DNA of 64,000 nt from Escherichia coli (GTDB lineage: Bacteria > Pseudomonadota > Gammaproteobacteria > Enterobacterales > Enterobacteriaceae). The position numbers and the translations under genes are program-made. Every line of letters begins with the position of its first letter. Position 1 is the stretch's first letter. The stretch lies in the NCBI RefSeq assembly GCF_046105845.1, contig NZ_CP151004.1. One strand, given 5' to 3'. Of this stretch, positions 10,474 through 24,048 are shown piece by piece. The notes under the pieces are model-generated. The model made no database searches. It was given only the letters and a program-made list of their open reading frames with translations, and was not told the origin of the DNA.

Positions 10474-11411
10474 TGAGCAGACGTGTTGCTACTATCACCC
10501 TTAATCCGGCTTATGACCTTGTTGGTTTCTGCCCGGAAATTGAACGCGGCGAAGTGAACCTGGTGAAAACCACCGGTCTGCATGCGGCGGGTAAAGGCAT
10601 CAACGTGGCCAAAGTATTAAAAGACCTGGGAATTGATGTCACCGTTGGCGGCTTCCTCGGTAAAGACAATCAGGATGGTTTTCAGCAACTGTTCAGCGAG
10701 CTGGGCATTGCCAACCGTTTCCAGGTTGTACAGGGGCGCACCCGAATTAACGTTAAGCTGACGGAAAAAGACGGCGAAGTGACCGACTTCAACTTCTCGG
10801 GTTTTGAAGTCACCCCCGCCGACTGGGAACGCTTTGTGACTGATTCTCTGAGCTGGCTCGGTCAGTTCGATATGGTCTGTGTCAGCGGAAGCTTACCGTC
10901 AGGCGTCAGCCCGGAAGCGTTCACCGACTGGATGACTCGCCTGCGTAGTCAGTGTCCTTGCATTATCTTTGATAGTAGCCGCGAAGCGTTAGTAGCAGGT
11001 TTGAAAGCGGCACCGTGGCTGGTGAAACCTAACCGCCGCGAGCTGGAAATCTGGGCGGGCCGTAAACTGCCTGAAATGAAAGATGTGATTGAAGCTGCGC
11101 ATGCGCTGCGTGAACAAGGTATCGCGCATGTCGTTATTTCACTGGGTGCCGAAGGCGCGCTTTGGGTTAATGCCTCCGGCGAATGGATCGCCAAACCACC
11201 GTCAGTCGATGTCGTAAGCACCGTTGGCGCAGGGGATTCTATGGTTGGTGGCCTGATTTATGGCTTGCTGATGCGTGAATCCAGTGAACACACACTGCGT
11301 CTGGCGACAGCTGTTGCAGCCCTGGCGGTAAGTCAAAGCAATGTGGGTATTACCGATCGTCCGCAGTTGGCCGCAATGATGGCGCGCGTCGACTTACAAC
11401 CTTTTAACTGA
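10473..11411 (+). CDS. fruK: 1-phosphofructokinase (PfkB family)
   Basis: 312-aa ORF with the PfkB signature (…GAGDSMVGG…). Its ATG overlaps the fruB stop (taATGa). Confidence 0.93.
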   Translation: MSRRVATITLNPAYDLVGFCPEIERGEVNLVKTTGLHAAGKGINVAKVLKDLGIDVTVGGFLGKDNQDGFQQLFSELGIANRFQVVQGRTRINVKLTEKDGEVTDFNFSGFEVTPADWERFVTDSLSWLGQFDMVCVSGSLPSGVSPEAFTDWMTRLRSQCPCIIFDSSREALVAGLKAAPWLVKPNRRELEIWAGRKLPEMKDVIEAAHALREQGIAHVVISLGAEGALWVNASGEWIAKPPSVDVVSTVGAGDSMVGGLIYGLLMRESSEHTLRLATAVAALAVSQSNVGITDRPQLAAMMARVDLQPFN

Positions 11412-11427
11412 CAGCAGGAGAGGCATA

Positions 11428-13119
11428 ATGAAAACGCTGCTGATTATTGACGCTAATCTCGGTCAGGCACGCGCCTATATGGCGAAGACCCTGCTGGGCG
11501 CGGCGGCGCGAAAAGCAAAACTGGAAATCATCGACAATCCGAACGACGCTGAAATGGCGATTGTTCTCGGTGATTCCATCCCGAACGACAGCGCGCTGAA
11601 CGGTAAAAATGTCTGGCTGGGCGATATTTCCCGGGCAGTTGCGCACCCTGAGCTGTTCCTGAGTGAAGCCAAAGGCCATGCGAAACCTTACACTGCGCCG
11701 GTCTCTGCGACAGCACCGGTTGCCGCCAGCGGTCCGAAACGCGTAGTTGCGGTGACTGCTTGCCCGACTGGCGTAGCACACACCTTTATGGCGGCTGAAG
11801 CCATTGAAACCGAAGCGAAAAAACGTGGCTGGTGGGTGAAAGTTGAAACCCGTGGTTCTGTTGGCGCGGGTAATGCAATCACTCCCGAAGAAGTCGCAGC
11901 AGCGGATCTGGTGATTGTGGCGGCAGATATCGAAGTGGATCTGGCGAAATTTGCTGGTAAACCGATGTATCGTACCTCTACCGGTCTGGCGCTGAAGAAA
12001 ACCGCGCAGGAACTGGATAAAGCGGTTGCTGAAGCAACGCCGTATGAACCGGCGGGCAAAACTCAAACAGCGACCACTGAAGGTAAGAAAGAGAGTGCAG
12101 GCGCTTACCGTCACTTGCTGACGGGCGTCTCTTACATGCTGCCGATGGTCGTTGCAGGTGGTCTGTGTATCGCGCTTTCTTTTGCTTTTGGTATCGAAGC
12201 GTTTAAAGAGCCGGGTACGTTGGCTGCGGCGCTGATGCAGATTGGTGGTGGTTCAGCCTTTGCGTTGATGGTGCCGGTACTGGCAGGTTATATTGCCTTT
12301 TCCATTGCCGATCGTCCGGGTCTCACGCCGGGTCTGATTGGCGGTATGCTGGCGGTCAGCACCGGTTCTGGCTTCATTGGCGGTATTATTGCGGGCTTCC
12401 TGGCTGGTTACATTGCGAAGTTAATCAGTACGCAATTGAAACTGCCACAGAGTATGGAGGCGCTGAAACCGATTCTGATCATTCCGCTAATTTCCAGTCT
12501 GGTGGTCGGTCTGGCGATGATCTACCTGATCGGTAAACCGGTTGCTGGCATTCTCGAAGGGTTGACTCACTGGCTGCAGACCATGGGGACTGCGAATGCG
12601 GTTCTGCTGGGGGCGATCCTCGGTGGCATGATGTGTACTGACATGGGCGGTCCGGTAAACAAAGCAGCGTACGCGTTCGGTGTGGGTCTGCTGAGTACTC
12701 AAACCTATGGCCCGATGGCGGCGATTATGGCGGCAGGTATGGTGCCACCGCTGGCAATGGGCCTGGCAACAATGGTGGCGCGTCGCAAATTCGACAAAGC
12801 GCAGCAGGAAGGTGGCAAAGCCGCTCTGGTATTGGGACTGTGCTTCATTTCGGAAGGTGCAATTCCGTTTGCTGCCCGTGATCCGATGCGAGTGCTGCCG
12901 TGCTGTATCGTGGGTGGGGCGCTGACTGGCGCAATCTCAATGGCGATTGGTGCGAAACTGATGGCACCGCACGGTGGTCTGTTTGTTCTGCTGATCCCTG
13001 GCGCGATTACGCCGGTATTGGGTTACCTGGTAGCCATTATTGCCGGTACGCTGGTGGCGGGTTTGGCCTATGCCTTCCTGAAACGTCCGGAAGTGGACGC
13101 AGTAGCGAAAGCAGCGTAA
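11428..13119 (+). CDS. fruA: PTS fructose EIIB'BC permease
   Basis: 563-aa ORF with N-terminal IIB-like domains followed by a polytopic IIC domain. Confidence 0.93.
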   Translation: MKTLLIIDANLGQARAYMAKTLLGAAARKAKLEIIDNPNDAEMAIVLGDSIPNDSALNGKNVWLGDISRAVAHPELFLSEAKGHAKPYTAPVSATAPVAASGPKRVVAVTACPTGVAHTFMAAEAIETEAKKRGWWVKVETRGSVGAGNAITPEEVAAADLVIVAADIEVDLAKFAGKPMYRTSTGLALKKTAQELDKAVAEATPYEPAGKTQTATTEGKKESAGAYRHLLTGVSYMLPMVVAGGLCIALSFAFGIEAFKEPGTLAAALMQIGGGSAFALMVPVLAGYIAFSIADRPGLTPGLIGGMLAVSTGSGFIGGIIAGFLAGYIAKLISTQLKLPQSMEALKPILIIPLISSLVVGLAMIYLIGKPVAGILEGLTHWLQTMGTANAVLLGAILGGMMCTDMGGPVNKAAYAFGVGLLSTQTYGPMAAIMAAGMVPPLAMGLATMVARRKFDKAQQEGGKAALVLGLCFISEGAIPFAARDPMRVLPCCIVGGALTGAISMAIGAKLMAPHGGLFVLLIPGAITPVLGYLVAIIAGTLVAGLAYAFLKRPEVDAVAKAA

Positions 13120-13128
13120 TAAAAGGTG

Positions 13129-13161
13129 TGTTACAGGGCAGAAATTTCCTGCCCTGTAACA
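13129..13161 (+). terminator. Stem-loop immediately downstream of fruA (13-bp stem, no U-tract)
   Basis: tgttacagggcag-aaatttc-ctgccctgtaaca, a perfect 13-bp stem starting 10 nt after the fruA stop; followed by only ttt. Confidence 0.5.
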
Positions 13162-13274
13162 TTTGATGAGCGCAAAGGGAATGACCGGTTTGTGAATGTA
13201 ATTTTATGAATTTAAATGGTTTTATCTTTTAGTAGAAACCTGAAACTTTCATCAAACACTAAGGTTATTTCCTC

Positions 13275-13306
13275 AAGGGCAGATTAATTTCTGCCCTTTT
13301 TTATTG
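13275..13306 (+). terminator. Canonical intrinsic terminator downstream of fruA
   Basis: aagggcag-attaattt-ctgccctt followed by ttttttattgtt. The stem core (agggcag/ctgccct) is shared with the hairpin at 13129-13161. Confidence 0.75.
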
Positions 13307-13440
13307 TTCCTGTTCTGTGCATCCCGTCACAAATTCCCCGTTTTTGTAATTCAGGCATTTAATCGCGTTTTGTGAGCCTGCTCAAATCTGCCCATTTTGC
13401 CTCTCTGGCGGTAATTTACTTTACGTAAAACATGCATACT

Positions 13441-13476
13441 ATGAGCACATGTTTAAATATGAACACATGTTTAAAC
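13441..13476. repeat. Tandem 18-bp direct repeat upstream of psuK
   Basis: atgagcacatgtttaaat | atgaacacatgtttaaac: two adjacent 18-mers with 2 mismatches, each containing the palindromes acatgt and tttaaa, ~70-100 bp upstream of the psuK ATG. Confidence 0.7.
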
Positions 13477-13542
13477 CGTCTTTGCAGTATCAATATTCTT
13501 GTGGATTGACAGGGTTGGTAATTTTTTACCAGAGGACGTGCT

Positions 13543-14484
13543 ATGCGCGAAAAGGATTATGTCGTAATTATAGGTTCGGCGAATATTGATGTCGCCGGAT
13601 ATTCACATGAATCATTAAATTATGCGGATTCAAATCCAGGTAAAATAAAATTTACGCCTGGTGGAGTCGGGCGCAATATTGCACAAAACCTGGCGTTGCT
13701 GGGGAATAAATCCTGGCTACTGAGCGCAGTAGGCAGTGATTTTTATGGTCAATCGTTGCTAACGCAAACCAATCAATCTGGTGTTTATGTCGATAAATGC
13801 CTGATTGTGCCGGGAGAAAACACGTCGAGCTATTTATCATTACTCGATAATACCGGTGAAATGCTGGTTGCTATAAATGACATGAATATTAGCAACGCTA
13901 TTACAGCTGAATATCTCGCACAGCACCGTGAATTTATTCAAAGGGCAAAGGTCATTGTCGCGGACTGTAATATCAGTGAAGAGGCACTGGCATGGATTCT
14001 GGATAATGCCGCCAATGTACCTGTATTTGTCGATCCGGTTTCGGCATGGAAATGTGTCAAAGTGCGCGACCGTCTAAATCAGATCCACACCCTGAAGCCA
14101 AACCGCCTTGAAGCGGAAACCCTGAGTGGGATTGCTTTGTCAGGGCGTGAAGATGTGGCAAAAGTTGCTGCCTGGTTCCATCAACATGGCCTGAACCGAC
14201 TGGTATTGAGCATGGGCGGCGATGGCGTTTATTACAGCGATATCAGCGGTGAAAGTGGCTGGTCTGCGCCGATCAAAACCAATGTTATTAATGTTACCGG
14301 AGCGGGCGATGCCATGATGGCTGGACTTGCTTCGTGTTGGGTAGACGGAATGCCGTTTGCCGAATCTGTTCGTTTCGCACAGGGATGTTCGTCAATGGCG
14401 CTCTCCTGTGAATACACCAATAACCCCGATTTATCGATTGCCAACGTTATATCTTTAGTGGAGAACGCAGAATGTCTGAATTAA
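13543..14484 (+). CDS. psuK: Pseudouridine kinase (PfkB family)
   Basis: 313-aa ORF with ribokinase-like motifs (…GGVGRNIAQNLALLG…, …GAGDAMMAG…). SD gagga at 13532-13536. Confidence 0.88.
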   Translation: MREKDYVVIIGSANIDVAGYSHESLNYADSNPGKIKFTPGGVGRNIAQNLALLGNKSWLLSAVGSDFYGQSLLTQTNQSGVYVDKCLIVPGENTSSYLSLLDNTGEMLVAINDMNISNAITAEYLAQHREFIQRAKVIVADCNISEEALAWILDNAANVPVFVDPVSAWKCVKVRDRLNQIHTLKPNRLEAETLSGIALSGREDVAKVAAWFHQHGLNRLVLSMGGDGVYYSDISGESGWSAPIKTNVINVTGAGDAMMAGLASCWVDGMPFAESVRFAQGCSSMALSCEYTNNPDLSIANVISLVENAECLN

Positions 14485-15410
14485 AAATTTCCCCTGAATT
14501 ATTACAAATTTCCCCGGAAGTGCAGGACGCTTTAAAAAACAAAAAACCGGTTGTGGCGCTGGAATCGACCATTATTTCTCACGGGATGCCGTTCCCACAA
14601 AATGCCCAGACCGCAATTGAAGTTGAAGAAACTATTCGTAAACAGGGCGCTGTACCTGCCACTATCGCCATTATTGGCGGCGTGATGAAAGTGGGTTTAA
14701 GCAAAGAAGAAATTGAATTGCTGGGTCGTGAAGGGCATAACGTGACCAAAGTTAGTCGTCGCGATTTACCTTTTGTTGTTGCCGCCGGAAAAAATGGCGC
14801 AACCACCGTTGCTTCAACGATGATTATTGCGGCGCTTGCCGGAATTAAAGTATTTGCCACCGGGGGAATTGGTGGTGTGCATCGCGGGGCGGAACATACC
14901 TTCGATATTTCTGCCGATTTGCAAGAACTGGCGCACACCAATGTCACCGTCGTTTGTGCCGGGGCGAAATCTATTCTCGATTTAGGCTTAACTACCGAAT
15001 ATTTAGAAACTTTCGGTGTACCGCTAATTGGCTATCAGACCAAAGCGCTGCCTGCGTTTTTCTGCCGCACCAGCCCGTTTGAAGTCAGTATTCGCCTTGA
15101 TAGTGCCACGGAAATTGCTCGTGCAATGGCAGTGAAATGGCAAAGCGGTCTGAACGGTGGCCTGGTGGTGGCAAATCCGATCCCGGAACAGTTTGCGATG
15201 CCGGAGGAATCTATCAATGCAGCCATAGATCAAGCCGTCGCCGAAGCCGAAGAGCAGGGCGTTATTGGTAAAGAAAGCACACCGTTCCTGCTGGCTCGTG
15301 TTGCTGAACTGACTGGCGGTGACAGCCTGAAATCCAACATCCAACTGGTGTTCAACAACGCCATTCTGGCGAGCGAAATTGCCAAAGAATATCAGCGTCT
15401 CGCGGGTTAA
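14472..15410 (+). CDS. psuG: Pseudouridine-5'-phosphate glycosidase
   Basis: 312-aa ORF of the IndA-like glycosidase family; overlaps the psuK 3' end by 13 bp. Confidence 0.88.
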   Translation: MSELKISPELLQISPEVQDALKNKKPVVALESTIISHGMPFPQNAQTAIEVEETIRKQGAVPATIAIIGGVMKVGLSKEEIELLGREGHNVTKVSRRDLPFVVAAGKNGATTVASTMIIAALAGIKVFATGGIGGVHRGAEHTFDISADLQELAHTNVTVVCAGAKSILDLGLTTEYLETFGVPLIGYQTKALPAFFCRTSPFEVSIRLDSATEIARAMAVKWQSGLNGGLVVANPIPEQFAMPEESINAAIDQAVAEAEEQGVIGKESTPFLLARVAELTGGDSLKSNIQLVFNNAILASEIAKEYQRLAG

Positions 15411-15437
15411 TTTCTGACGGGCAGAAAGCCGTCGCCC
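15411..15437 (+). promoter_or_regulatory. Conserved 27-nt leader motif upstream of psuT (copy 1)
   Basis: tttctgacgggcagaaagccgtcgccc begins immediately after the psuG stop; 26/27 identical to 18639-18665 upstream of nupX. Confidence 0.5.
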
Positions 15438-15503
15438 GTACTCATCAAGCATACCAAAACCTGGCGCTGACGCCGGGTTTACTGGCATGAAGGGAAAATC
15501 ATT

Positions 15504-16754
15504 ATGGATATAATGAGAAGTGTTGTGGGGATGGTGGTGCTACTGGCAATAGCATTTCTGTTGTCAGTGAATAAAAAGGGCATCAGTTTGCGCACGGTTG
15601 GAGCCGCACTGCTGCTGCAAATCGCTATTGGTGGCATCATGCTCTACTTCCCACCGGGAAAATGGGCAGTAGAACAGGCGGCATTAGGCGTTCATAAAGT
15701 GATGTCTTACAGTGATGCCGGTAGCGCCTTTATTTTTGGTTCATTGGTCGGGCCGAAAATGGATGTCCTGTTTGATGGCGCGGGCTTTATCTTCGCCTTT
15801 CGCGTACTCCCGGCGATTATCTTCGTCACTGCGCTCATCAGTCTGCTGTACTACATTGGCGTGATGGGGCTGCTAATCCGCATTCTTGGCAGTATTTTTC
15901 AGAAAGCTCTCAACATCAGCAAAATCGAATCTTTTGTTGCGGTTACCACTATTTTCCTCGGGCAAAATGAGATCCCGGCGATTGTAAAACCGTTTATCGA
16001 TCGCATGAATCGCAACGAGCTGTTTACCGCAATTTGTAGCGGGATGGCGTCCATTGCGGGTTCGATGATGATTGGTTATGCCGGAATGGGCGTACCAATT
16101 GACTACCTGTTAGCGGCATCGCTGATGGCGATCCCTGGTGGTATCTTGTTTGCACGTATTCTTAGTCCGGCAACCGAGCCTTCGCAGGTCACATTTGAAA
16201 ATCTGTCGTTCAGCGAAACGCCGCCAAAAAGCTTTATCGAAGCAGCGGCGAGCGGTGCGATGACCGGGTTGAAAATCGCCGCTGGTGTGGCGACGGTGGT
16301 AATGGCGTTTGTCGCAATTATTGCGCTGATCAACGGTATTATCGGCGGAATTGGCGGCTGGTTTGGTTTTGCCAATGCTTCTCTGGAAAGTATTTTTGGC
16401 TATGTGCTGGCACCGCTGGCGTGGATCATGGGTGTGGACTGGAGTGATGCCAACCTGGCGGGTAGCCTGATTGGGCAGAAACTGGCGATTAACGAATTCG
16501 TCGCTTACCTGAGCTTCTCCCCATACCTGCAAACGGGCGGCACGCTGGAAGTGAAAACCATTGCGATTATCTCCTTTGCGCTTTGTGGTTTTGCTAACTT
16601 TGGTTCTATCGGTGTTGTCGTTGGCGCATTTTCGGCTATTTCGCCAAAACGCGCACCGGAAATCGCCCAGCTTGGTTTACGGGCGCTGGCAGCAGCAACG
16701 CTTTCCAACCTGATGAGCGCGACCATTGCCGGGTTCTTTATTGGTTTAGCTTGA
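15504..16754 (+). CDS. psuT: NupC-family (CNT) nucleoside transporter
   Basis: 416-aa polytopic membrane ORF; close paralog of the ORF at 18691-19941. Confidence 0.88.
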   Translation: MDIMRSVVGMVVLLAIAFLLSVNKKGISLRTVGAALLLQIAIGGIMLYFPPGKWAVEQAALGVHKVMSYSDAGSAFIFGSLVGPKMDVLFDGAGFIFAFRVLPAIIFVTALISLLYYIGVMGLLIRILGSIFQKALNISKIESFVAVTTIFLGQNEIPAIVKPFIDRMNRNELFTAICSGMASIAGSMMIGYAGMGVPIDYLLAASLMAIPGGILFARILSPATEPSQVTFENLSFSETPPKSFIEAAASGAMTGLKIAAGVATVVMAFVAIIALINGIIGGIGGWFGFANASLESIFGYVLAPLAWIMGVDWSDANLAGSLIGQKLAINEFVAYLSFSPYLQTGGTLEVKTIAIISFALCGFANFGSIGVVVGAFSAISPKRAPEIAQLGLRALAAATLSNLMSATIAGFFIGLA

Positions 16755-16759
16755 GTTTC

Positions 16760-16800
16760 ATTGCCGGATGTACGCGCTTATTTAGCGTCACATCCGGCAA
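16760..16800. repeat. REP-like palindromic element between convergent psuT and yeiL
   Basis: gccggatgtacgcgcttatttagcgtcacatccggc, an inverted repeat with REP-type GCCGGATG arms. Confidence 0.65.
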
Positions 16801-16821
16801 TCGCTCTATTGCAAATAATTT

Positions 16822-17481
16822 TTACTGCATCATCCCTGAGAATTTATTTTCCGGGTCCATCTCCAGTGCCAGTCCTGACAACTGCTTTCTGTTTTTAATT
16901 AGATACCCTTTCTTGCTTTTAATTAATAAACCGTCGTGAATGAGTTGAGCGAGAACATATAAAAGATGTCGATAAGAAACGCCTAAATACTCTGCCGCTT
17001 GCGTATGCTTTTCGTGATAAAGATCACCTTCTTGTGAGAGTAATATAAAAGCTGCCAGGCGATTCACTAACGGAAATGATTGATTCTGAGTTAAAGAAAC
17101 AATATTGCGATAATTTTTATGGCTTAAACTAACGCAGAGTTTTCGTAAAAATAGTGTGTCGTTTAATAACAGCGGACGGTAATGTTTCATAGGGAGCGCA
17201 AGGCACCAACACTCTTCAATAGCCTGTACCGCACGCGGTTCATGGTCTTTATCGATTAACTCAATCTCACCAATAAAACAGGGGGCGGCAAAGAAATCGA
17301 TCAGCGACACGCGACCATTAGCAAGCGTGGCGTAAAGCCTGGCGCGGCCTCGCGTCAGGTAAAACAGCCAGGACGGCTGTTGCCCTTCCTGCACTATGTA
17401 GTCACGCGCTAAAAAATGAAACAGCCGCGTATCGGCTGAAACATCCGTTGAAAAGCAATCCTTAAACGCGGATTCACTCAT
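16822..17481 (-). CDS. yeiL: CRP/FNR-family transcriptional regulator
   Basis: 219 aa from ATG 17481 (GTG at 17520 would give 232 aa). cNMP-binding-like domain plus C-terminal HTH (…[14 protein letters not shown]…). Confidence 0.85.
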
Positions 17482-17649
17482 CAATTGCTGCTTAAGATCA
17501 TTATTGTGGATTTCTTTCACGATGTTTATCCGCTATGAGATTTCTCATATTTAGCATACTTACGCTGTTGTTAAGATTCAATCATCGGCCCGGTCGAATT
17601 TTCTTTGCTGTAGAAAAAATAACGCAACTGGAAACAGAGGAAATAAACA

Positions 17650-18591
17650 ATGGAAAAGAGAAAAATTATTCTGGATTGTGATCCGGGTCATGATGATGCT
17701 ATTGCTATAATGATGGCGGCGAAACATCCGGCAATAGATTTATTAGGCATCACCATTGTGGCGGGTAATCAGACGCTTGATAAAACATTAATTAATGGGC
17801 TGAATGTTTGCCAGAAACTGGAGATTAATGTTCCGGTTTATGCGGGGATGCCACAGCCCATTATGCGTCAACAAATCGTTGCCGATAATATTCACGGTGA
17901 AACCGGACTTGATGGCCCGGTATTCGAGCCGCTGACCCGCCAGGCAGAAAGCACTCATGCGGTGAAATATATCATCGATACCCTGATGGCAAGCGATGGC
18001 GATATCACTCTGGTGCCGGTTGGTCCGCTTTCAAATATCGCGGTGGCAATGCGCATGCAGCCCGCAATCCTGCCGAAAATCCGTGAAATTGTGCTAATGG
18101 GCGGCGCTTACGGTACTGGCAACTTTACGCCATCCGCCGAGTTCAACATCTTTGCTGACCCGGAAGCCGCACGCGTGGTGTTCACCTCCGGCGTTCCGTT
18201 GGTGATGATGGGCCTCGATCTCACCAACCAGACTGTTTGCACCCCGGACGTGATTGCTCGGATGGAAAGGGTAGGCGGCCCCGCCGGAGAGCTGTTCAGC
18301 GACATCATGAATTTCACTCTAAAAACGCAGTTCAAAAACTACGGCCTGGCTGGCGGCCCGGTGCATGACGCCACCTGCATCGGTTATCTGATTAACCCTG
18401 ATGGCATTAAAACCCAGGAGATGTACGTCGAAGTGGATGTTAACAGTGGCCCTTGCTATGGGCGTACCGTCTGCGACGAGCTGGGCGTTCTTGGCAAGCC
18501 CGCTAATACCAAAGTCGGCATCACTATTGATACCAACTGGTTCTGGGGATTAGTCGAAGAGTGCGTGCGCGGCTACATCAAAACCCATTAA
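17650..18591 (+). CDS. rihB: Pyrimidine-specific ribonucleoside hydrolase
   Basis: 313-aa ORF with the nucleoside hydrolase N-terminal Asp cluster (…[17 protein letters not shown]…). Confidence 0.92.
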
Positions 18592-18638
18592 GTGTTGATA
18601 ACAAGCCGGGTCAGTATCGCAAGATGCAGGCCCGGCTA

Positions 18639-18665
18639 TTTCTGATGGGCAGAAAGCCGTCGCCC
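18639..18665 (+). promoter_or_regulatory. Conserved 27-nt leader motif upstream of nupX (copy 2)
   Basis: tttctgatgggcagaaagccgtcgccc, preceded by a hairpin (agccggg…cccggct, 18604-18637) downstream of rihB. Confidence 0.5.
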
Positions 18666-18690
18666 AATATGACATGAAGAGATAATAACT

Positions 18691-19941
18691 ATGGATGTCA
18701 TGAGAAGTGTTCTGGGAATGGTGGTATTACTGGCAATTGCATTTTTACTGTCAGTAAACAAGAAGAAGATCAGCCTGCGTACTGTCGGTGCGGCGCTGGT
18801 ATTACAGGTCGTGATTGGCGGGATTATGCTTTGGTTACCGCCAGGGCGTTGGGTCGCAGAAAAAGTCGCTTTTGGCGTCCATAAAGTGATGGCGTACAGC
18901 GATGCAGGTAGCGCTTTTATCTTCGGTTCGCTGGTCGGGCCGAAAATGGACACCTTATTTGATGGCGCAGGATTTATCTTTGGCTTCAGGGTATTACCGG
19001 CAATTATCTTCGTTACAGCACTGGTGAGTATTCTCTACTACATCGGTGTGATGGGGATCTTAATTCGCATTCTCGGCGGTATATTCCAGAAAGCATTGAA
19101 TATCAGCAAGATTGAGTCATTCGTCGCGGTCACTACCATTTTCCTCGGGCAAAACGAAATTCCGGCAATCGTCAAACCCTTTATCGATCGTCTGAATCGC
19201 AATGAATTATTTACAGCGATTTGTAGCGGGATGGCCTCGATTGCTGGTTCGACAATGATTGGTTACGCCGCACTGGGCGTGCCTGTGGAATATCTGCTGG
19301 CGGCATCGTTAATGGCGATCCCCGGCGGGATCTTGTTTGCCCGCCTGTTAAGCCCGGCTACGGAATCTTCGCAGGTTTCCTTTAATAACCTCTCTTTCAC
19401 CGAAACACCGCCAAAAAGCATTATTGAAGCCGCCGCTACAGGGGCAATGACCGGACTGAAAATCGCAGCAGGTGTGGCGACAGTAGTGATGGCATTTGTC
19501 GCCATCATTGCGTTAATTAACGGTATTATCGGCGGCGTTGGCGGCTGGTTTGGTTTTGAACATGCCTCGCTGGAGTCCATTTTAGGTTACCTGCTGGCCC
19601 CGCTGGCGTGGGTGATGGGGGTTGACTGGAGTGATGCGAATCTTGCCGGGAGTTTGATTGGACAGAAACTGGCGATTAATGAATTTGTCGCTTACCTCAA
19701 TTTCTCACCTTATCTGCAAACAGCTGGCACTCTGGATGCTAAAACCGTGGCGATTATTTCCTTCGCGTTGTGCGGTTTCGCTAACTTTGGTTCTATCGGG
19801 GTGGTGGTGGGGGCGTTTTCTGCGGTTGCGCCACACCGTGCGCCGGAAATCGCCCAGCTTGGTTTACGCGCGCTGGCGGCGGCGACACTTTCTAACCTGA
19901 TGAGTGCCACCATTGCAGGATTCTTTATTGGCTTAGCGTAG
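18691..19941 (+). CDS. nupX: NupC-family nucleoside permease
   Basis: 416-aa ORF, largely colinear and highly similar to psuT (MDVMRSVLGMVVLLAIAFLLSVNKK… vs MDIMRSVVGMVVLLAIAFLLSVNKK…). Confidence 0.88.
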   Translation: MDVMRSVLGMVVLLAIAFLLSVNKKKISLRTVGAALVLQVVIGGIMLWLPPGRWVAEKVAFGVHKVMAYSDAGSAFIFGSLVGPKMDTLFDGAGFIFGFRVLPAIIFVTALVSILYYIGVMGILIRILGGIFQKALNISKIESFVAVTTIFLGQNEIPAIVKPFIDRLNRNELFTAICSGMASIAGSTMIGYAALGVPVEYLLAASLMAIPGGILFARLLSPATESSQVSFNNLSFTETPPKSIIEAAATGAMTGLKIAAGVATVVMAFVAIIALINGIIGGVGGWFGFEHASLESILGYLLAPLAWVMGVDWSDANLAGSLIGQKLAINEFVAYLNFSPYLQTAGTLDAKTVAIISFALCGFANFGSIGVVVGAFSAVAPHRAPEIAQLGLRALAAATLSNLMSATIAGFFIGLA

Positions 19942-19949
19942 TGCGCGAT

Positions 19950-19992
19950 TTATGAGCCGGATAAGACGCGGTCAAGCGTCGAATCCGGCAAC
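19950..19992. repeat. REP element between convergent nupX and yeiI
   Basis: gagccggataagacgcggtcaagcgtcgaatccggcaa, REP-type palindrome (CCGGATAAG…CGTC…ATCCGG). Confidence 0.7.
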
Positions 19993-19996
19993 ATTG

Positions 19997-21085
19997 TTAC
20001 ACCATCGGCACTAATGAAAGCGCGTTATCGGCAGACAGGGTAGGGTTGTTTAAGCTGCCGCTGGCGCGTGAAATTGCCGCGCAGGCCATCGCAAAACGGG
20101 CGCTGTCACGGAAATTGTTTCCCTCCAGAAAGCTATATACCAGGCCCGCCATAAAACCATCGTCAGCACCAAAACTGTCTACTGTCGTATGCGCTGGCGC
20201 TGTCAGCAAAAATTGCTCTCCATTCTTTTCGCTGCAATAAACTGACTCATCGGGCAAATAAACAAACAGTTGCTGAACGCCTTGCTGATGCAACGCATTC
20301 ACTGCGGCATTACGGTCAGCATCGCTGGTGATCGCCTGTCCCCATAAAATTTCCAGCTCCGGTAAAGTGGGTTTCAGGGTGTGAATATGCGCCAGCCAGT
20401 GTTTGATTTTGCCCGCTTTGAATTCTGAAACGGTATCGACAAACACCGGGATTTCATCAGCGAGGGTAAAGACCCACTCCAGCGCCTCGGCTGTCAGGTT
20501 GCAATCAGCAAGTACCACGCCCGCATGACGAAGTAAATCGCGCGACCCGTTCAGTAGTTGCGGTGTCAACTGATCCAGCAGATGGGTATCGTTAATCGCC
20601 AGCACGGTTTGATCATCTCGATTGGCAATTGCCAGATACGTCGATGTGCTTTGACCATGTAAACGAACGCAGCCGGAGACATTCACGCCGGCGCGGCGCG
20701 TTTCTTCCAGGAGCATTTCGCCATAAAAGTCATCGCCAATCACTGAAAGCAAATGGACGTCGCGGCCTAACAGCGCCAGATTGTGGGCGATATTGCGTCC
20801 CACGCCGCCCGCCGAGCAATGAATTGTACCGGGATGAGAAGCCGCTTGTGGGTAACGGATATCCGCCATCCCGCGAATATCCATATTGATTGTCCCAACC
20901 ACTACGCAGTATTCCTGCTCGGTGAGAATGTAACCTTTGCCTTTAATCCGGCCTTTGCGCATTAAATCCATAATATGCGCAGCAACGCGCGAACGGCTGA
21001 TTTGCAGCATATCCGCAATTTCGTTCTGCTGAATCAGCGGGTTACGCCGTAAAATTGCAAGGATCTCCTTCTCCCGGTTGTTCAT
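19997..21085 (-). CDS. yeiI: HTH-fused PfkB-family sugar/nucleoside kinase
   Basis: 362-aa ORF. N-terminal ~55-aa winged-HTH-like segment (…QNEIADMLQISRSRVAAHIMDLMRKGRI…) followed by a PfkB kinase domain (…GGVGRNIAHNLALLG…). Confidence 0.88.
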   Translation of the reverse strand: MNNREKEILAILRRNPLIQQNEIADMLQISRSRVAAHIMDLMRKGRIKGKGYILTEQEYCVVVGTINMDIRGMADIRYPQAASHPGTIHCSAGGVGRNIAHNLALLGRDVHLLSVIGDDFYGEMLLEETRRAGVNVSGCVRLHGQSTSTYLAIANRDDQTVLAINDTHLLDQLTPQLLNGSRDLLRHAGVVLADCNLTAEALEWVFTLADEIPVFVDTVSEFKAGKIKHWLAHIHTLKPTLPELEILWGQAITSDADRNAAVNALHQQGVQQLFVYLPDESVYCSEKNGEQFLLTAPAHTTVDSFGADDGFMAGLVYSFLEGNNFRDSARFAMACAAISRASGSLNNPTLSADNALSLVPMV

Positions 21086-21087
21086 CT

Positions 21088-21945
21088 TCAGGCTACCGCT
21101 TTTTCAGTTTGTTGCGCTTTCAGCCAGGCGATCTCTTCTGCCCAGATATCCGGGTTGATGGTTTCAAGGATCAGCGGAATGCCGTCGAAACGGTCGTCCT
21201 GCATGATCCAGCGGAACGCATCATGACCGATATTGCCTTCACCGAGGCTATGATGGCGGTCAACGCGGCTGCCAAAGGTGCTTTTCGCATCGTTAAGGTG
21301 CATCCCGCGCAGATACTTAAAGCCAACAATACGGGCAAAATCCGCGAACGTTTTCTCGCATTCGGCAGAAGTACGCAAATCATACCCGGCAGCGAAAGCA
21401 TGGCAGGTATCAATGCAGACGCCGACGCGGGATTTATCTTCCACGCCGTCGATAATCGCCGCGAGATGTTCGAATTTAAACCCTAAGTTACTGCCCTGAC
21501 CGGCGGTGTTTTCAATCACCGCTGTCACACCATGAGTTTTATCCAGCGCAATGTTGATGGATTCGGCAATACGCGCAAGGCAATCCTCTTCTGAAATTTG
21601 CATCAGATGGCTGCCAGGGTGGAAGTTGAGCAAAGAAAGCCCCAGCTGTTCGCAACGCTGCATTTCATCTATAAACGCATCGCGCGATTTTTCCAGAGCT
21701 TCAGCGACCGGATGTCCGAGGTTAATCAGATAACTGTCGTGGGGAAGAATTTGCGCCGATGTGTAGTGATATTTTTCACAGGCGGCTTTGAATTCATCGA
21801 TGGTTTGCGTCGTGAGCGGTGCGGCACGCCACTGACGTTGGTTTTTGGTGAACAAGGCAAACGCGGTTGCGTCGATTTCGGCGGCGCGAATTGCGGCATT
21901 TGCCAGACCGCCAGCAGCACTAACGTGCGCTCCAATGTATTTCAT
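21088..21945 (-). CDS. nfo: Endonuclease IV (AP endonuclease)
   Basis: 285-aa ORF of the xylose-isomerase-like TIM-barrel AP endonuclease family 2 (…HLNDAK…). Confidence 0.93.
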
Positions 21946-22018
21946 GCGAGGACTCCTGTTAAACCCGCTGGAGGAAAACGGTAATGATAGCGGGTTAACA
22001 GGAGCAAGATGTAGTGGT

Positions 22019-23068
22019 TTATGCGATGACGCTTTGAATCACATAGTTAATCGCACCACCACCAACAATCAGCCAGGCAAACAGTACCAGTGCCATCAGC
22101 AGAGGTTTCGCCCCGGCTTTTTTCAGCGCGCTTACGTGAGTGGTCAGACCCAGCGCCGCCATCGCCATTGCCAGCAGGAAGGTATCCAGCGTTACCAGCA
22201 TGTTCACCACGCTCTGCGGTAACAGGTGGAACGAGTTAAAGATGGCAACTACGATGAACAAGATGGCAAACCACGGAATAGTGATTTTGCTTTTCTCGCC
22301 GCTGTTCGCCCCAGACAGCTGTTTAACACGCGCCGCCAGCAGGATGAGGAACGGAGCCAGCATCATCACGCGCAGCATTTTGGAAATAACTGCTGCGTTT
22401 TCTGCATCCGGGCTGATGGCATGACCTGCCGCCACCACCTGCGCCACTTCGTGCACAGTAGAACCAATGTAGATACCGAAAGTTTCCGGACTAAACCATT
22501 GAGACATCAGCGGATATATCGCCGGGTAGAGGAAAATCGCGACGGTCCCGAAGATAACAACGGTTGCAACAGCCACGGTTACTTTACTGGCTTCCGCTTT
22601 CACTACCGGCTCAGTCGCCAGTACCGCGGCAGCACCACAGATACTGCTACCGGCACCGATCAACCAGCTGGTGTGCTTATCCAGACCAAACACTTTCTGC
22701 CCCAAGAAGCAAGCCAGCAGGAAGGTACTGGACAGCGTCAGCACGTCAATGATGATCCCACTGATACCGACATCGGCAATTTGCGAGAACGTCAGACGGA
22801 AGCCATAAAGAATGATACCCAGACGTAATAAATATTGCTTGGCAAACAGCACACCACCGTCACAGCTTTTCCAGATGTGCGGATAGATGGTGTTGCCTAA
22901 AACCATCCCCAACAAGATTGCGAGGGTGAGGGCACTAAACCCGGCACCCGCAACCGCGGGAATGGAACCACCCCACAGGGCGACCCCGGTGATAACTGCA
23001 CTCAGGGCTAACCCCGGAATAAAATGCCACAGTGTACGATGTTGTTTCTGTAAGGTGATATTCGTCAT
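22019..23068 (-). CDS. yeiH: UPF0324-family inner membrane protein
   Basis: 349-aa polytopic membrane ORF, divergent from the LysR-type gene yeiE. Confidence 0.88.
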
Positions 23069-23166
23069 AACCCTCTCCTTTAACCGGGCATAAGGTTACG
23101 ACTAACTGGTTTAAAAATAAAATTGATTATATATTTATAATTAATCTTTATAAGTGGTAAGCGACT

Positions 23167-24048
23167 ATGCACATCACCCTCCGGCAGTTGGAAGTTTTTG
23201 CAGAAGTATTGAAAAGTGGATCAACCACCCAGGCGTCGGTGATGCTGGCGTTGTCGCAATCAGCAGTGAGCGCAGCCTTGACCGACCTGGAAGGGCAGCT
23301 TGGCGTTCAACTGTTTGATCGCGTGGGGAAAAGACTGGTTGTTAATGAACACGGGCGGCTGCTCTATCCGCGTGCGTTGGCACTGCTTGAACAGGCGGTT
23401 GAAATCGAACAACTGTTTCGCGAAGACAACGGCGCGATTCGTATCTATGCCAGTAGTACCATCGGTAACTACATTCTGCCTGCAGTTATCGCCCGTTATC
23501 GCCATGATTATCCGCAGTTGCCGATTGAACTTAGCGTTGGGAACAGTCAGGACGTGATGCAAGCGGTGCTGGATTTCCGCGTTGATATTGGCTTTATTGA
23601 AGGACCGTGCCACAGCACCGAAATCATTTCTGAACCGTGGCTGGAAGACGAGCTGGTGGTTTTCGCCGCGCCGACTTCGCCATTGGCTCGTGGTCCGGTC
23701 ACCTTAGAACAGCTGGCCGCTGCGCCGTGGATCCTGCGTGAACGCGGCTCCGGCACGCGGGAGATTGTCGATTATCTGTTGCTGTCACATTTACCGAAGT
23801 TTGAGATGGCGATGGAATTAGGTAACTCCGAGGCAATCAAACATGCGGTGCGTCATGGGTTGGGAATTAGTTGCCTGTCGCGACGGGTGATTGAAGATCA
23901 ATTGCAGGCAGGCACATTAAGTGAAGTTGCGGTCCCTCTGCCGCGCCTGATGCGTACGTTGTGGCGTATACATCATCGGCAAAAACACCTTTCCAACGCG
24001 CTACGGCGCTTTCTGGACTATTGCGATCCCGCGAATGTGCCGCGTTAA
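23167..24048 (+). CDS. yeiE: LysR-type transcriptional regulator
   Basis: 293-aa ORF with N-terminal HTH (…[20 protein letters not shown]…) and an LTTR substrate-binding domain. Confidence 0.9.

Follow-up and report, generated by a model that had tools for sequence, protein, structure and literature searches.

The window, the whole stretch of DNA analysed here, is 64,000 nucleotides (nt) long, and all coordinates below are positions in it. We studied the locus at 13543-21085, in which an initial annotation had recognized a cluster of seven nucleoside salvage genes, psuK-psuG-psuT, yeiL, rihB-nupX and yeiI, within 7.5 kb. This gene content was borne out. A list of open reading frames (ORFs) for 11000-24000 returned the seven genes at exactly the same coordinates, the RefSeq gene names in the best-matching Escherichia coli genome were the same seven names, and Pfam and NCBIfam models concurred with the gene identities (Table 1). 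Upstream of the locus lies fruBKA, and nfo, yeiH and yeiE follow downstream. Gene order and content were identical to those of the E. coli K-12 locus, yeiC(psuK)-yeiN(psuG)-yeiM(psuT), yeiL, yeiK(rihB)-yeiJ(nupX), yeiI, from which the window showed minor differences only. The whole 7.5 kb was matched by megablast in 5368 of 5426 complete E. coli genomes with 100% coverage and up to 98.3% identity. The gene cluster is a known, textbook-annotated E. coli locus and its gene content adds nothing new; the operators and the roles of YeiI and YeiL proposed here are put forward as new hypotheses, not as results.

For a comparative analysis we scanned one genome per species with the PsuT/NupX alignment. 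This yielded 59 loci, which were taken with 10 kb flanks and annotated by tblastn with the proteins of the window. The genes of the cluster fall into two modules, psuK-psuG-psuT plus yeiI (module A) and yeiL plus rihB-nupX (module B). psuK was found without rihB in 28 loci, in 27 of which yeiI lay directly downstream of psuT and convergent with it, the 28th being cut off after psuT. The reverse, yeiL/rihB-nupX without psuK, was found in 14 loci, and yeiI was absent from 13 of these. Both modules were present in seven loci, where module B was nested between psuT and yeiI. Altogether yeiI was present in 34 of 34 testable psuK loci, and yeiL and rihB co-occurred in 21 of 21 loci. Thus yeiI belongs with the psu genes despite adjoining nupX in E. 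coli, and yeiL belongs with rihB-nupX. We consider it likely that the standard Escherichia locus consists of two functionally separate salvage modules lying side by side, each with an apparent regulator of its own.

Some loci departed from these arrangements. The exception among the 14 loci without psuK, in Escherichia sp. MOD1-EC7003 (L028, 5118-11309), has a decayed psu operon: it keeps psuG, yeiL, rihB, nupX and yeiI without psuK and psuT, and looks like a pseudouridine module in decay that has left yeiI orphaned. In Klebsiella spallanzanii both modules are found on the same contig (L027 and L043), ~22 kb apart and not nested. Furthermore, psuT was apparently frameshifted or split in Citrobacter amalonaticus AUH_CA_2023_1 (L045) and C. 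koseri NCTC10786 (L047), where it was matched over 1249 or 1251 nt with no single full-length hit and psuK, psuG and yeiI were retained.

Table 1. Genes and candidate regulatory features of the locus, in order of position in the window.
Feature	Position	Strand	Description
Second CRP-type site, TGTGC-N6-TCACA	13316-13331	+	Less conserved; one-mismatch pattern match
CRP-type site, TGTGA-N6-TCAAA	13371-13386	+	One-mismatch pattern match, conserved in all genera aligned; putative CRP binding, from the consensus only
Predicted psuK promoter	13415-13442	+	-35 TTTACT, 16-nt spacer, -10 TACTAT, read from the sequence; hexamers conserved across genera
Candidate operator box AGCACATGTT	13444-13453	+	Directly downstream of the -10; 18 bp from the second box
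Candidate operator box AACACATGTT	13462-13471	+	Second box of the pair
psuK	13543-14484	+	Pseudouridine kinase, PfkB family, no helix-turn-helix; NF007355 715 bits (cut-off 540)
psuG	14472-15410	+	Pseudouridine-5'-phosphate glycosidase (RefSeq name); PF04227 442 bits (cut-off 25.2), 291/291 profile positions
Leader hairpin P1, ACGGGCAG-AAA-GCCGTCGCCCGT	15417-15439	+	psuG-psuT spacer, 7 nt after the psuG stop; covariance model 35.4 bits
Leader hairpin P2, AACCUGGCG-CUGA-CGCCGGGUU	15457-15480	+	Terminator-like (A-tract, GC-stem, U-tract), 23 nt before the psuT ATG; fold z = -2.6
psuT (yeiM)	15504-16754	+	CNT-family transporter, presumed pseudouridine importer; three CNT Pfam domains, TIGR00804 516 bits (cut-off 442)
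yeiL	16822-17520	-	CRP/FNR-family regulator, divergent; NF007707 416 bits (cut-off 180)
Palindrome ATGAGATTTCTCAT	17535-17548		Candidate YeiL operator in the divergent yeiL-rihB spacer; ATGAG-ATTT-CTCAT, with flanks TATGA-N6-TCATA
rihB (yeiK)	17650-18591	+	Pyrimidine-preferring ribonucleoside hydrolase; NF007417 (ribosylpyrimidine nucleosidase equivalog) 722.9 bits (cut-off 459)
GC-rich hairpin after rihB	18604-18637	+	Predicted fold; resembles a terminator or 3'-end structure
Leader hairpin P1, ATGGGCAG-AAA-GCCGTCGCCCAA	18645-18667	+	rihB-nupX spacer; covariance model 32.9 bits
nupX (yeiJ)	18691-19941	+	CNT-family transporter; CNT Pfam domains, TIGR00804 500 bits (cut-off 442)
yeiI	19997-21085	-	Winged helix-turn-helix (HTH_24), then PfkB domain (Pfam)

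Phylogenetic footprinting upstream of psuK revealed four conserved features, namely a CRP-type site, the -35 and -10 hexamers, two boxes and a small hairpin. AACAYRTGYT has no match in the window other than the two boxes; the pair with its 18-bp spacing recurred in 33 of 35 psuK loci, a density 137 times that of the background. A simple promoter scan gave fewer hits than shuffled sequence and was uninformative. The small hairpin, TGGT-N8-ACCA (13516-13531), lies just before the psuK ribosome-binding site and covaries with TGGC-N8-GCCA in other genera. Further upstream, two strong terminator-like hairpins are present between fruA and psuK. One (13129-13161) follows fruA. The other (13275-13298), AAGGGCAGATTAATTTCTGCCCTT with a T-run behind it, is isolated ~110 nt beyond, RefSeq annotating nothing in between; a 23-codon ORF noticed by eye (13216-13287) ends within its loop. 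This could represent an orphan terminator, a small RNA or a gene for a small protein. The fruA-psuK spacer was matched in only 4231 of 5426 E. coli genomes. Within the operon, psuK and psuG overlap by 13 nt (14472-14484), which suggests translational coupling.

The most probable candidate for binding the two psuK boxes is YeiI. YeiI and PsuK are paralogs with 40% identity over the kinase domain, a relationship on which the initial annotation was silent, and the closest solved structure to YeiI is E. coli PsuK. With 258.7 bits on NF007355, YeiI stayed below the pseudouridine kinase cut-off of 540. Two catalytic motifs are intact in PsuK orthologs, NxxE in 35/35 and GAGD in 34/34, in whose place YeiI orthologs have TxxE (32/35) and GADD (34/34); the Asn of NxxE, Asn187, is a Mg2+ ligand. 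The pseudouridine contacts Asn14, Asp16, Ser30, Tyr97, Asn112, Asn143 and Lys170 are kept in YeiI (for the roles of these residues see PMC9061257 and PMC9247573). A database search showed that fusions of a winged helix-turn-helix (wHTH) with PfkB are widespread in Gammaproteobacteria. Both NxxE and GAGD are intact in those of Yersinia, Serratia, Photorhabdus, Xenorhabdus, Pasteurellaceae, Shewanella, Aliivibrio and Ferrimonas, whose kinase domains are 40-60% identical to PsuK, compared to 38-41% for YeiI-type proteins. Judged by eye, the helix-turn-helix (HTH) of the fusions is highly conserved with that of YeiI. In Yersinia and Pasteurella an HTH-psuK/psuG/CNT operon begins with the fusion, and in Shewanella so does an HTH-psuK/psuG operon; there is no separate yeiI, and the HTH-psuK and psuG genes overlap there as psuK and psuG do in the window. 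AAACA-N2-TGTTT boxes were found upstream of these operons: Pasteurella and Shewanella have two apiece, the perfect palindrome GCAAACATATGTTTGC among them, and Yersinia has a single clear one at a greater distance upstream.

In a tree of kinase domains, PsuK proteins lacking the HTH were nested within the fusions (92% bootstrap) and the YeiI clade (100%) was their sister, with Shewanella and Vibrio-type fusions outside both the PsuK/fusion and the YeiI clades. These patterns suggest that YeiI is probably a local regulator of psuKGT and a regulatory derivative of an ancestral HTH-pseudouridine-kinase fusion. The ancestor might have been a bifunctional HTH-pseudouridine kinase, which in the lineage of Enterobacteriaceae would have split into PsuK, having lost the HTH, and YeiI, having kept the HTH and the ligand pocket with two catalytic motifs altered. 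YeiI would now act mainly as a pseudouridine-responsive regulator of psuKGT by binding the two AACAYRTGYT boxes, which would overlap the psuK transcription start in a promoter that may also be CRP-dependent. YeiI is still termed uncharacterized (PMC9061257), and a search of the papers available to us returned no named pseudouridine regulator ('PsuR').

YeiL belongs to the CRP/FNR family by its cNMP_binding (52.8 bits, cut-off 27.5) and HTH_Crp_2 (27.7 bits, cut-off 27) domains as well as by NF007707 (Table 1). Cys81, Cys104 and Cys106 do not vary and Cys129 is shared by 19 of 21 orthologs; this pattern suits a sensor of redox state or metals better than one of nucleosides. Of 17 aligned species ranging from E. 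coli to Pantoea, 16 have the palindrome ATGAGATTTCTCAT between yeiL and rihB unchanged and Pluralibacter deviates from it by one base, whereas YeiL protein identity falls to ~61% across these species. Exact copies occurred at 20 loci with yeiL and at none of 40 that lack it, and the match is unique in the window. This co-occurrence suggests that YeiL is probably a local regulator of module B, which would bind the palindrome and act on rihB-nupX. In Salmonella enterica subsp. arizonae (L032, 6352-6604) an insertion of ~120 nt lies downstream of the palindrome, and the yeiL-rihB spacer measures 251 instead of ~129 nt. YeiL has been proposed as a post-exponential nitrogen-starvation regulator, according to PMC3590769, citing Anjum 2000, and its only recorded target is YeiL itself (PMC9308461). 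PMC2898832 describes rihB as "physiologically silent" in the laboratory and reports its 25-fold induction by autoinducer-2-conditioned medium.

The transporters of the two modules, PsuT and NupX, are paralogs of 416 amino acids each, which align without gaps at 88% identity and 95% similarity. The initial annotation had described them as near-identical in length and highly similar, indicating a local duplication. Near-identity applies to length only, since the genes share 78.6% of their DNA sequence, with differences at 48% of third codon positions and a longest identical run of 26 nt. The Nei-Gojobori synonymous divergence (dS) of ~1.45 is near saturation and dN/dS is 0.05, which indicates that both copies are ancient and strongly constrained by purifying selection. 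A neighbour-joining tree built from 42 Enterobacterales sequences with a distant outgroup united all 21 psuG-linked transporters in a single clade (74% bootstrap). This clade was embedded among the rihB-linked copies of Enterobacteriaceae, Erwiniaceae, Hafniaceae and Yersiniaceae; rihB-linked copies were also found in Pantoea, Ewingella, Hafnia and Izhakiella. Across ~40 Enterobacterales species, copies grouped by genomic context and not by species, E. coli PsuT falling with the PsuT of other genera and not with E. coli NupX, so that the duplication should be older than the split of Escherichia, Citrobacter, Klebsiella, Enterobacter and their relatives. The phylogeny that the initial annotation had proposed for dating the event thus places it before the diversification of Enterobacteriaceae: the two are true paralogs, as stated there, and judging from dS and the tree their duplication is not recent. 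We favour the reading that PsuT arose from a NupX-type gene, which is not proven.

Both proteins are members of the CNT family by TIGR00804 (Table 1) and by the domains Nucleos_tra2_N, Gate and Nucleos_tra2_C, with 81, 56 and 241 bits for PsuT and 81, 56 and 242 bits for NupX, all above the cut-offs. We compared the nucleoside-binding residues of the family, namely G-Q-x-E in hairpin HP1, residue 188 in transmembrane segment 4 (TM4), the Glu of HP2 and F-x-N-x-x-S in TM7 (bioRxiv 10.1101/2023.02.03.527023). In an alignment to nwCNT (5L26), GQNE, NEF and FANFGS were conserved in PsuT and NupX. Four positions were perfectly diagnostic for the two clades (PsuT/NupX, 21 versus 21 sequences): 56 (V/A), 112 (I/V), 188 (M/T) and 195 (M/L). 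Position 188, with Met in 21/21 psuG-linked and Thr in 21/21 rihB-linked copies, aligns with Val188 of vcCNT and nwCNT, the one TM4 residue that contacts the nucleobase, which lines the "nucleo-pocket" together with G187 and L259 (PMC4139061; bioRxiv 10.1101/2023.02.03.527023). Of the binding residues only 188 differs, the remaining base and ribose contacts being identical between PsuT and NupX, and it is therefore a candidate specificity switch between the two transporters.

NupX has been found to carry uridine and cytidine with low efficiency; transport of uridine, cytidine and xanthosine by PsuT was not detectable, and PsuT owes the name of pseudouridine transporter solely to its operon (PMC11241209). 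Uridine and cytidine are hydrolysed by RihB (PMC10526354). With NupX and RihB sharing uridine and cytidine and PsuT encoded in the psu operon, the description in the initial annotation of two parallel uptake/cleavage modules is a fair one, and each transporter does follow a nucleoside-processing enzyme, psuT the glycosidase PsuG and nupX the hydrolase RihB.

The duplication extends upstream beyond the start codons. Both leaders have in common, with one mismatch, a 27-nt stretch, TTTCTGAYGGGCAGAAAGCCGTCGCCC, which was found at only these two places in the window, compared to 0.15 expected by chance. Its core, RYGGGCAG-N3-GC-N-GTCGCCCRY, corresponds to the 23-nt hairpin P1 and was present in ~51 of 54 transporter leaders of both types, including those of Pantoea, Ewingella and Hafnia. 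On 47 distinct sequences the seven-pair hairpin was 89.7% paired, as opposed to 34-51% when the partners were slid against each other. Covariation was seen in the two outer pairs (C-G 31 / U-A 11; A-U 16 / G-C 11); the inner pair changes from G-C to G-U, and a compensatory change from G-C to A-U is seen in Hafnia. Since the covariation partly tracks the two lineages, it represents a modest number of independent events. In a search of 736 kb on both strands the covariance model of P1 matched transporter leaders only, and by BLAST P1 was found at a median of 2 places per E. coli genome, where nothing is annotated. It is absent from the HTH-psuK operons of Yersinia and Pasteurella.

The two types of leader differ around P1. 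In the psuT type, the psuG stop is followed by P1, a conserved linker, the terminator-like hairpin P2 (AAACCUGGC...GCCGGGUUU) and the ribosome-binding site, and the consensus fold of P2 over 19 genera and species has nine almost invariant pairs. In the nupX type, rihB is followed by a GC-rich variable hairpin and then by P1; the sequence of the former varies between species and the hairpin is kept (other genera were read by eye). The rihB-linked leader of K. spallanzanii retains a P2-type hairpin otherwise seen in psuT leaders. A search by eye for an antiterminator pairing between P1 and P2 or a pseudoknot of loop and tail showed nothing consistent across genera.

The nupX leader of the window (18666-18690) is 12 nt shorter than that of the E. 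coli species representative (L002, 13166-13201), with 25 versus 37 nt between P1 and the ATG, which indicates that the linker after P1 is dispensable in the lineage of the window. The missing stretch is TAACGGGATCAG, and the short form is also found in VCSW7, E. whittamii and Escherichia sp. E1V33. VCSW7, an isolate from soil and leaf litter, is the E. coli genome that best matches the locus. With a best identity of only 98.3%, and about half of the E. coli genomes matching at 80-95%, the window seems to derive from a less commonly sequenced Escherichia lineage.

Several explanations for P1 were rejected. A leader peptide does not agree with the start codons, as E. coli nupX has an ATG mini-ORF at a position where psuT-type copies have ACG, GCG or CCG with the pairing kept. 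A known RNA family was not supported by Rfam 15, which for 13000-22000 (E up to 1) gave no match at either leader and one weak hit at 19955-20003, related to repetitive extragenic palindromes (REP). A dispersed repeat of the REP kind does not agree with the restriction of the model to transporter leaders and the median of 2 places per genome. We lean towards an RNA-level element that sets transporter expression, either as a processing or stability barrier or as a site for a protein or small ligand, and the conserved loop sequence favours sequence-specific recognition over a purely structural role. A DNA-level operator has a much smaller share of our expectation, and what is left goes to other explanations. 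It is possible, and in our estimation doubtful, that both halves of a wider proposal apply together: that P1 is a new cis-regulatory RNA, binding a protein or a ligand and controlling both CNT transporters post-transcriptionally, so that the link suspected in the initial annotation would reside in P1, and that YeiI is 'PsuR', a pseudouridine-sensing repressor derived from a duplicated and split HTH-kinase.

In the model we propose, PsuT would import pseudouridine, PsuK would phosphorylate it and PsuG would cleave the product to uracil and ribose-5-phosphate, and in the second module NupX would import uridine and cytidine for hydrolysis by RihB. One duplication would have copied the transporter gene together with its 5' leader before Enterobacteriaceae diversified, and the copies would then have diverged at the nucleobase-contacting residue 188. 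Several points weigh against this model. The candidate motifs are assigned to YeiI and YeiL by co-occurrence and position only. In most genera the CRP-like site of psuK has a TCATA half-site, equal to the YeiL half-site, and there may be some input of YeiL at psuK in species with both modules. Support for the backbone of the transporter tree is low (10-16%) and its outgroup distant, and the papers that could be read gave no demonstration of pseudouridine transport by PsuT and no report of an assay with this substrate. YeiI retains the catalytic base Asp256 as well as Lys185, Asp164 and Glu190, and may thus have stayed active as a kinase on pseudouridine or a related nucleoside. Finally, yeiI starts 2 bp after the stop of nfo on the same strand (21085-21088), a point absent from the initial annotation, and is probably co-transcribed with this gene for endonuclease IV, which would be unusual for a dedicated local regulator. 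Genomic systematic evolution of ligands by exponential enrichment (SELEX) gave a signal of RpoD holoenzyme between nfo and yeiI (PMC3946193) and one of RpoS inside psuG, upstream of psuT (PMC5493296).

The retention of Asp256, Lys185, Asp164 and Glu190 in YeiI, the change of Met114 to Thr in its base pocket, the NCBIfam label of merely 'sugar kinase' and the probable co-transcription with a DNA repair gene might indicate an active kinase for another nucleoside, e.g. a modified uridine, with the psuK boxes bound by another factor. We regard this as unlikely. yeiI is strictly inherited and lost together with psuKGT, its HTH is highly conserved with that of the HTH-PsuK fusions, the same type of operator lies upstream of both kinds of operon, and the two catalytic motifs are altered in every YeiI and in no PsuK or fusion. 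A redundant pseudouridine kinase is argued against by the inability of a psuK mutant to use pseudouridine, as stated in PMC12506659, citing Preumont 2008. YeiI as a regulator of psuKGT thus remains the reading we prefer.

A further alternative is that the fruA-nfo interval is merely a variable site where nucleoside modules come and go, and that the adjacency of the modules has no functional meaning. Depending on the species this interval carries module A only, module B only, both or extra genes; module B alone was found there in four loci, those of Salmonella enterica arizonae, a Citrobacter, a Buttiauxella and Pluralibacter. Module B also occupies unrelated sites in Pantoea, Hafnia, Ewingella, Izhakiella and Superficieibacter. 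REP-like inverted repeats (GCCGGAT...ATCCGGC) follow both transporters (16755-16821 and 19942-20003), the weak Rfam match at 19955-20003 being to naRNA4 (23.6 bits, E = 0.84), a family that we consider REP-related; module B could be lost or inserted by recombination between repeats of this kind. Against this, the PsuT clade is nearest, with weak support, to NupX-type copies of the same interval in Enterobacteriaceae, which fits a local duplication better than independent arrival, and the nested order psuT/[yeiL rihB nupX]/yeiI recurs in four genera. We therefore hold a functionally meaningless adjacency to be decidedly unlikely.

The initial annotation had suggested that the two modules share regulation via yeiL or yeiI, as one co-regulated supercluster. 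The genes are indeed adjacent in Escherichia, Phytobacter diazotrophicus, Citrobacter amalonaticus S646 and Entomohabitans, yeiL is positioned between the modules, both transporters carry the same leader hairpin, and the TCATA half-site at psuK resembles that of the YeiL box. However, the modules occur apart from each other in ~40 species, each with its own regulator gene. The YeiL palindrome was not found at the psuK promoter or in any locus with module A only, and the AACAYRTGYT boxes were not found in the yeiL-rihB-nupX region of the window. What speaks most against shared control by YeiL or YeiI, which we consider very improbable, is that each motif is absent from the other module; the only shared cis-element is the leader hairpin inherited with the duplicated transporter.

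Least credible of all is a recent Escherichia-specific tandem duplication, or ongoing gene conversion, as the source of the similarity of PsuT and NupX. In its favour are their equal length and 88% identity, and the loop bases shared by both leader hairpins within Escherichia at otherwise variable positions (AAA, and C at the GC-N-G position) together with the 5' flank TTTCTGA. Synonymous divergence also declines along the genes, from ~0.8 (5' end) to ~0.5 (3' end), and these observations would agree with conversion over short tracts. Against it stand the dS, the shortness of the longest identical run, the clustering of E. coli PsuT with PsuT of other genera and the four clade-diagnostic residues, by which a recent duplication or wholesale conversion is largely refuted for the coding regions. 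Short conversion tracts within Escherichia, in the leaders at 15411-15437 and 18639-18665, are possible.

With separate modules as the preferred reading, the locus now yields testable hypotheses: YeiI with defined boxes, YeiL with a defined palindrome, residue 188 and an unannotated leader hairpin. The candidate targets of YeiL, rihB-nupX, are reported as silent in the laboratory. Pseudouridine is abundant in urine and in products of RNA turnover, and now also derives from mRNA therapeutics, so that its sensing and import by enteric bacteria is of some practical interest. If true, the separation of an HTH-kinase into enzyme and regulator would represent a clean case of subfunctionalisation.

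Compared with known systems, module A resembles the HTH-psuK/psuG/CNT operons of Yersinia, Serratia and Pasteurellaceae, which encode the same enzymes with the CNT gene in third place and AAACA-N2-TGTTT boxes upstream, as well as the HTH-psuK/psuG operon of Shewanella. There the kinase itself carries the wHTH with its motifs intact and yeiI is missing, whereas the window has a kinase without HTH and a separate, altered HTH paralog. Transcription factors with an enzyme fold include the ROK repressors NagC and Mlc, NadR, BirA and Bacillus subtilis PurR. Like these, YeiI combines a DNA-binding domain with an enzyme fold that binds small molecules and adjoins the pathway it would control; it differs by its PfkB/ribokinase fold, its DNA binding and ligand response are putative, and we draw an analogy only, with no claim to family membership. 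YeiL shares a cNMP-binding-like domain and a Crp-type HTH with CRP/FNR, and its candidate site TATGA-N6-TCATA has the palindromic geometry of that family. It scored far below the CRP equivalog model, however (25.8 bits versus a cut-off of 266), its site differs from TGTGA-N6-TCACA and TTGAT-N4-ATCAA, its cysteine pattern (C81, C104, C106, C129) is its own, and it seems to be local and not global like CRP and FNR. The xapAB-xapR system of E. coli for xanthosine (phosphorylase, transporter and regulator), described in part in PMC11241209, likewise combines a nucleoside-specific enzyme, a dedicated transporter and a local regulator, and XapB is a specialised paralog of the general transporter NupG, similar to the specialisation of transporters proposed here. 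It differs in that XapB belongs to the NHS and not the CNT transporter family and that its regulator is of the LysR type.

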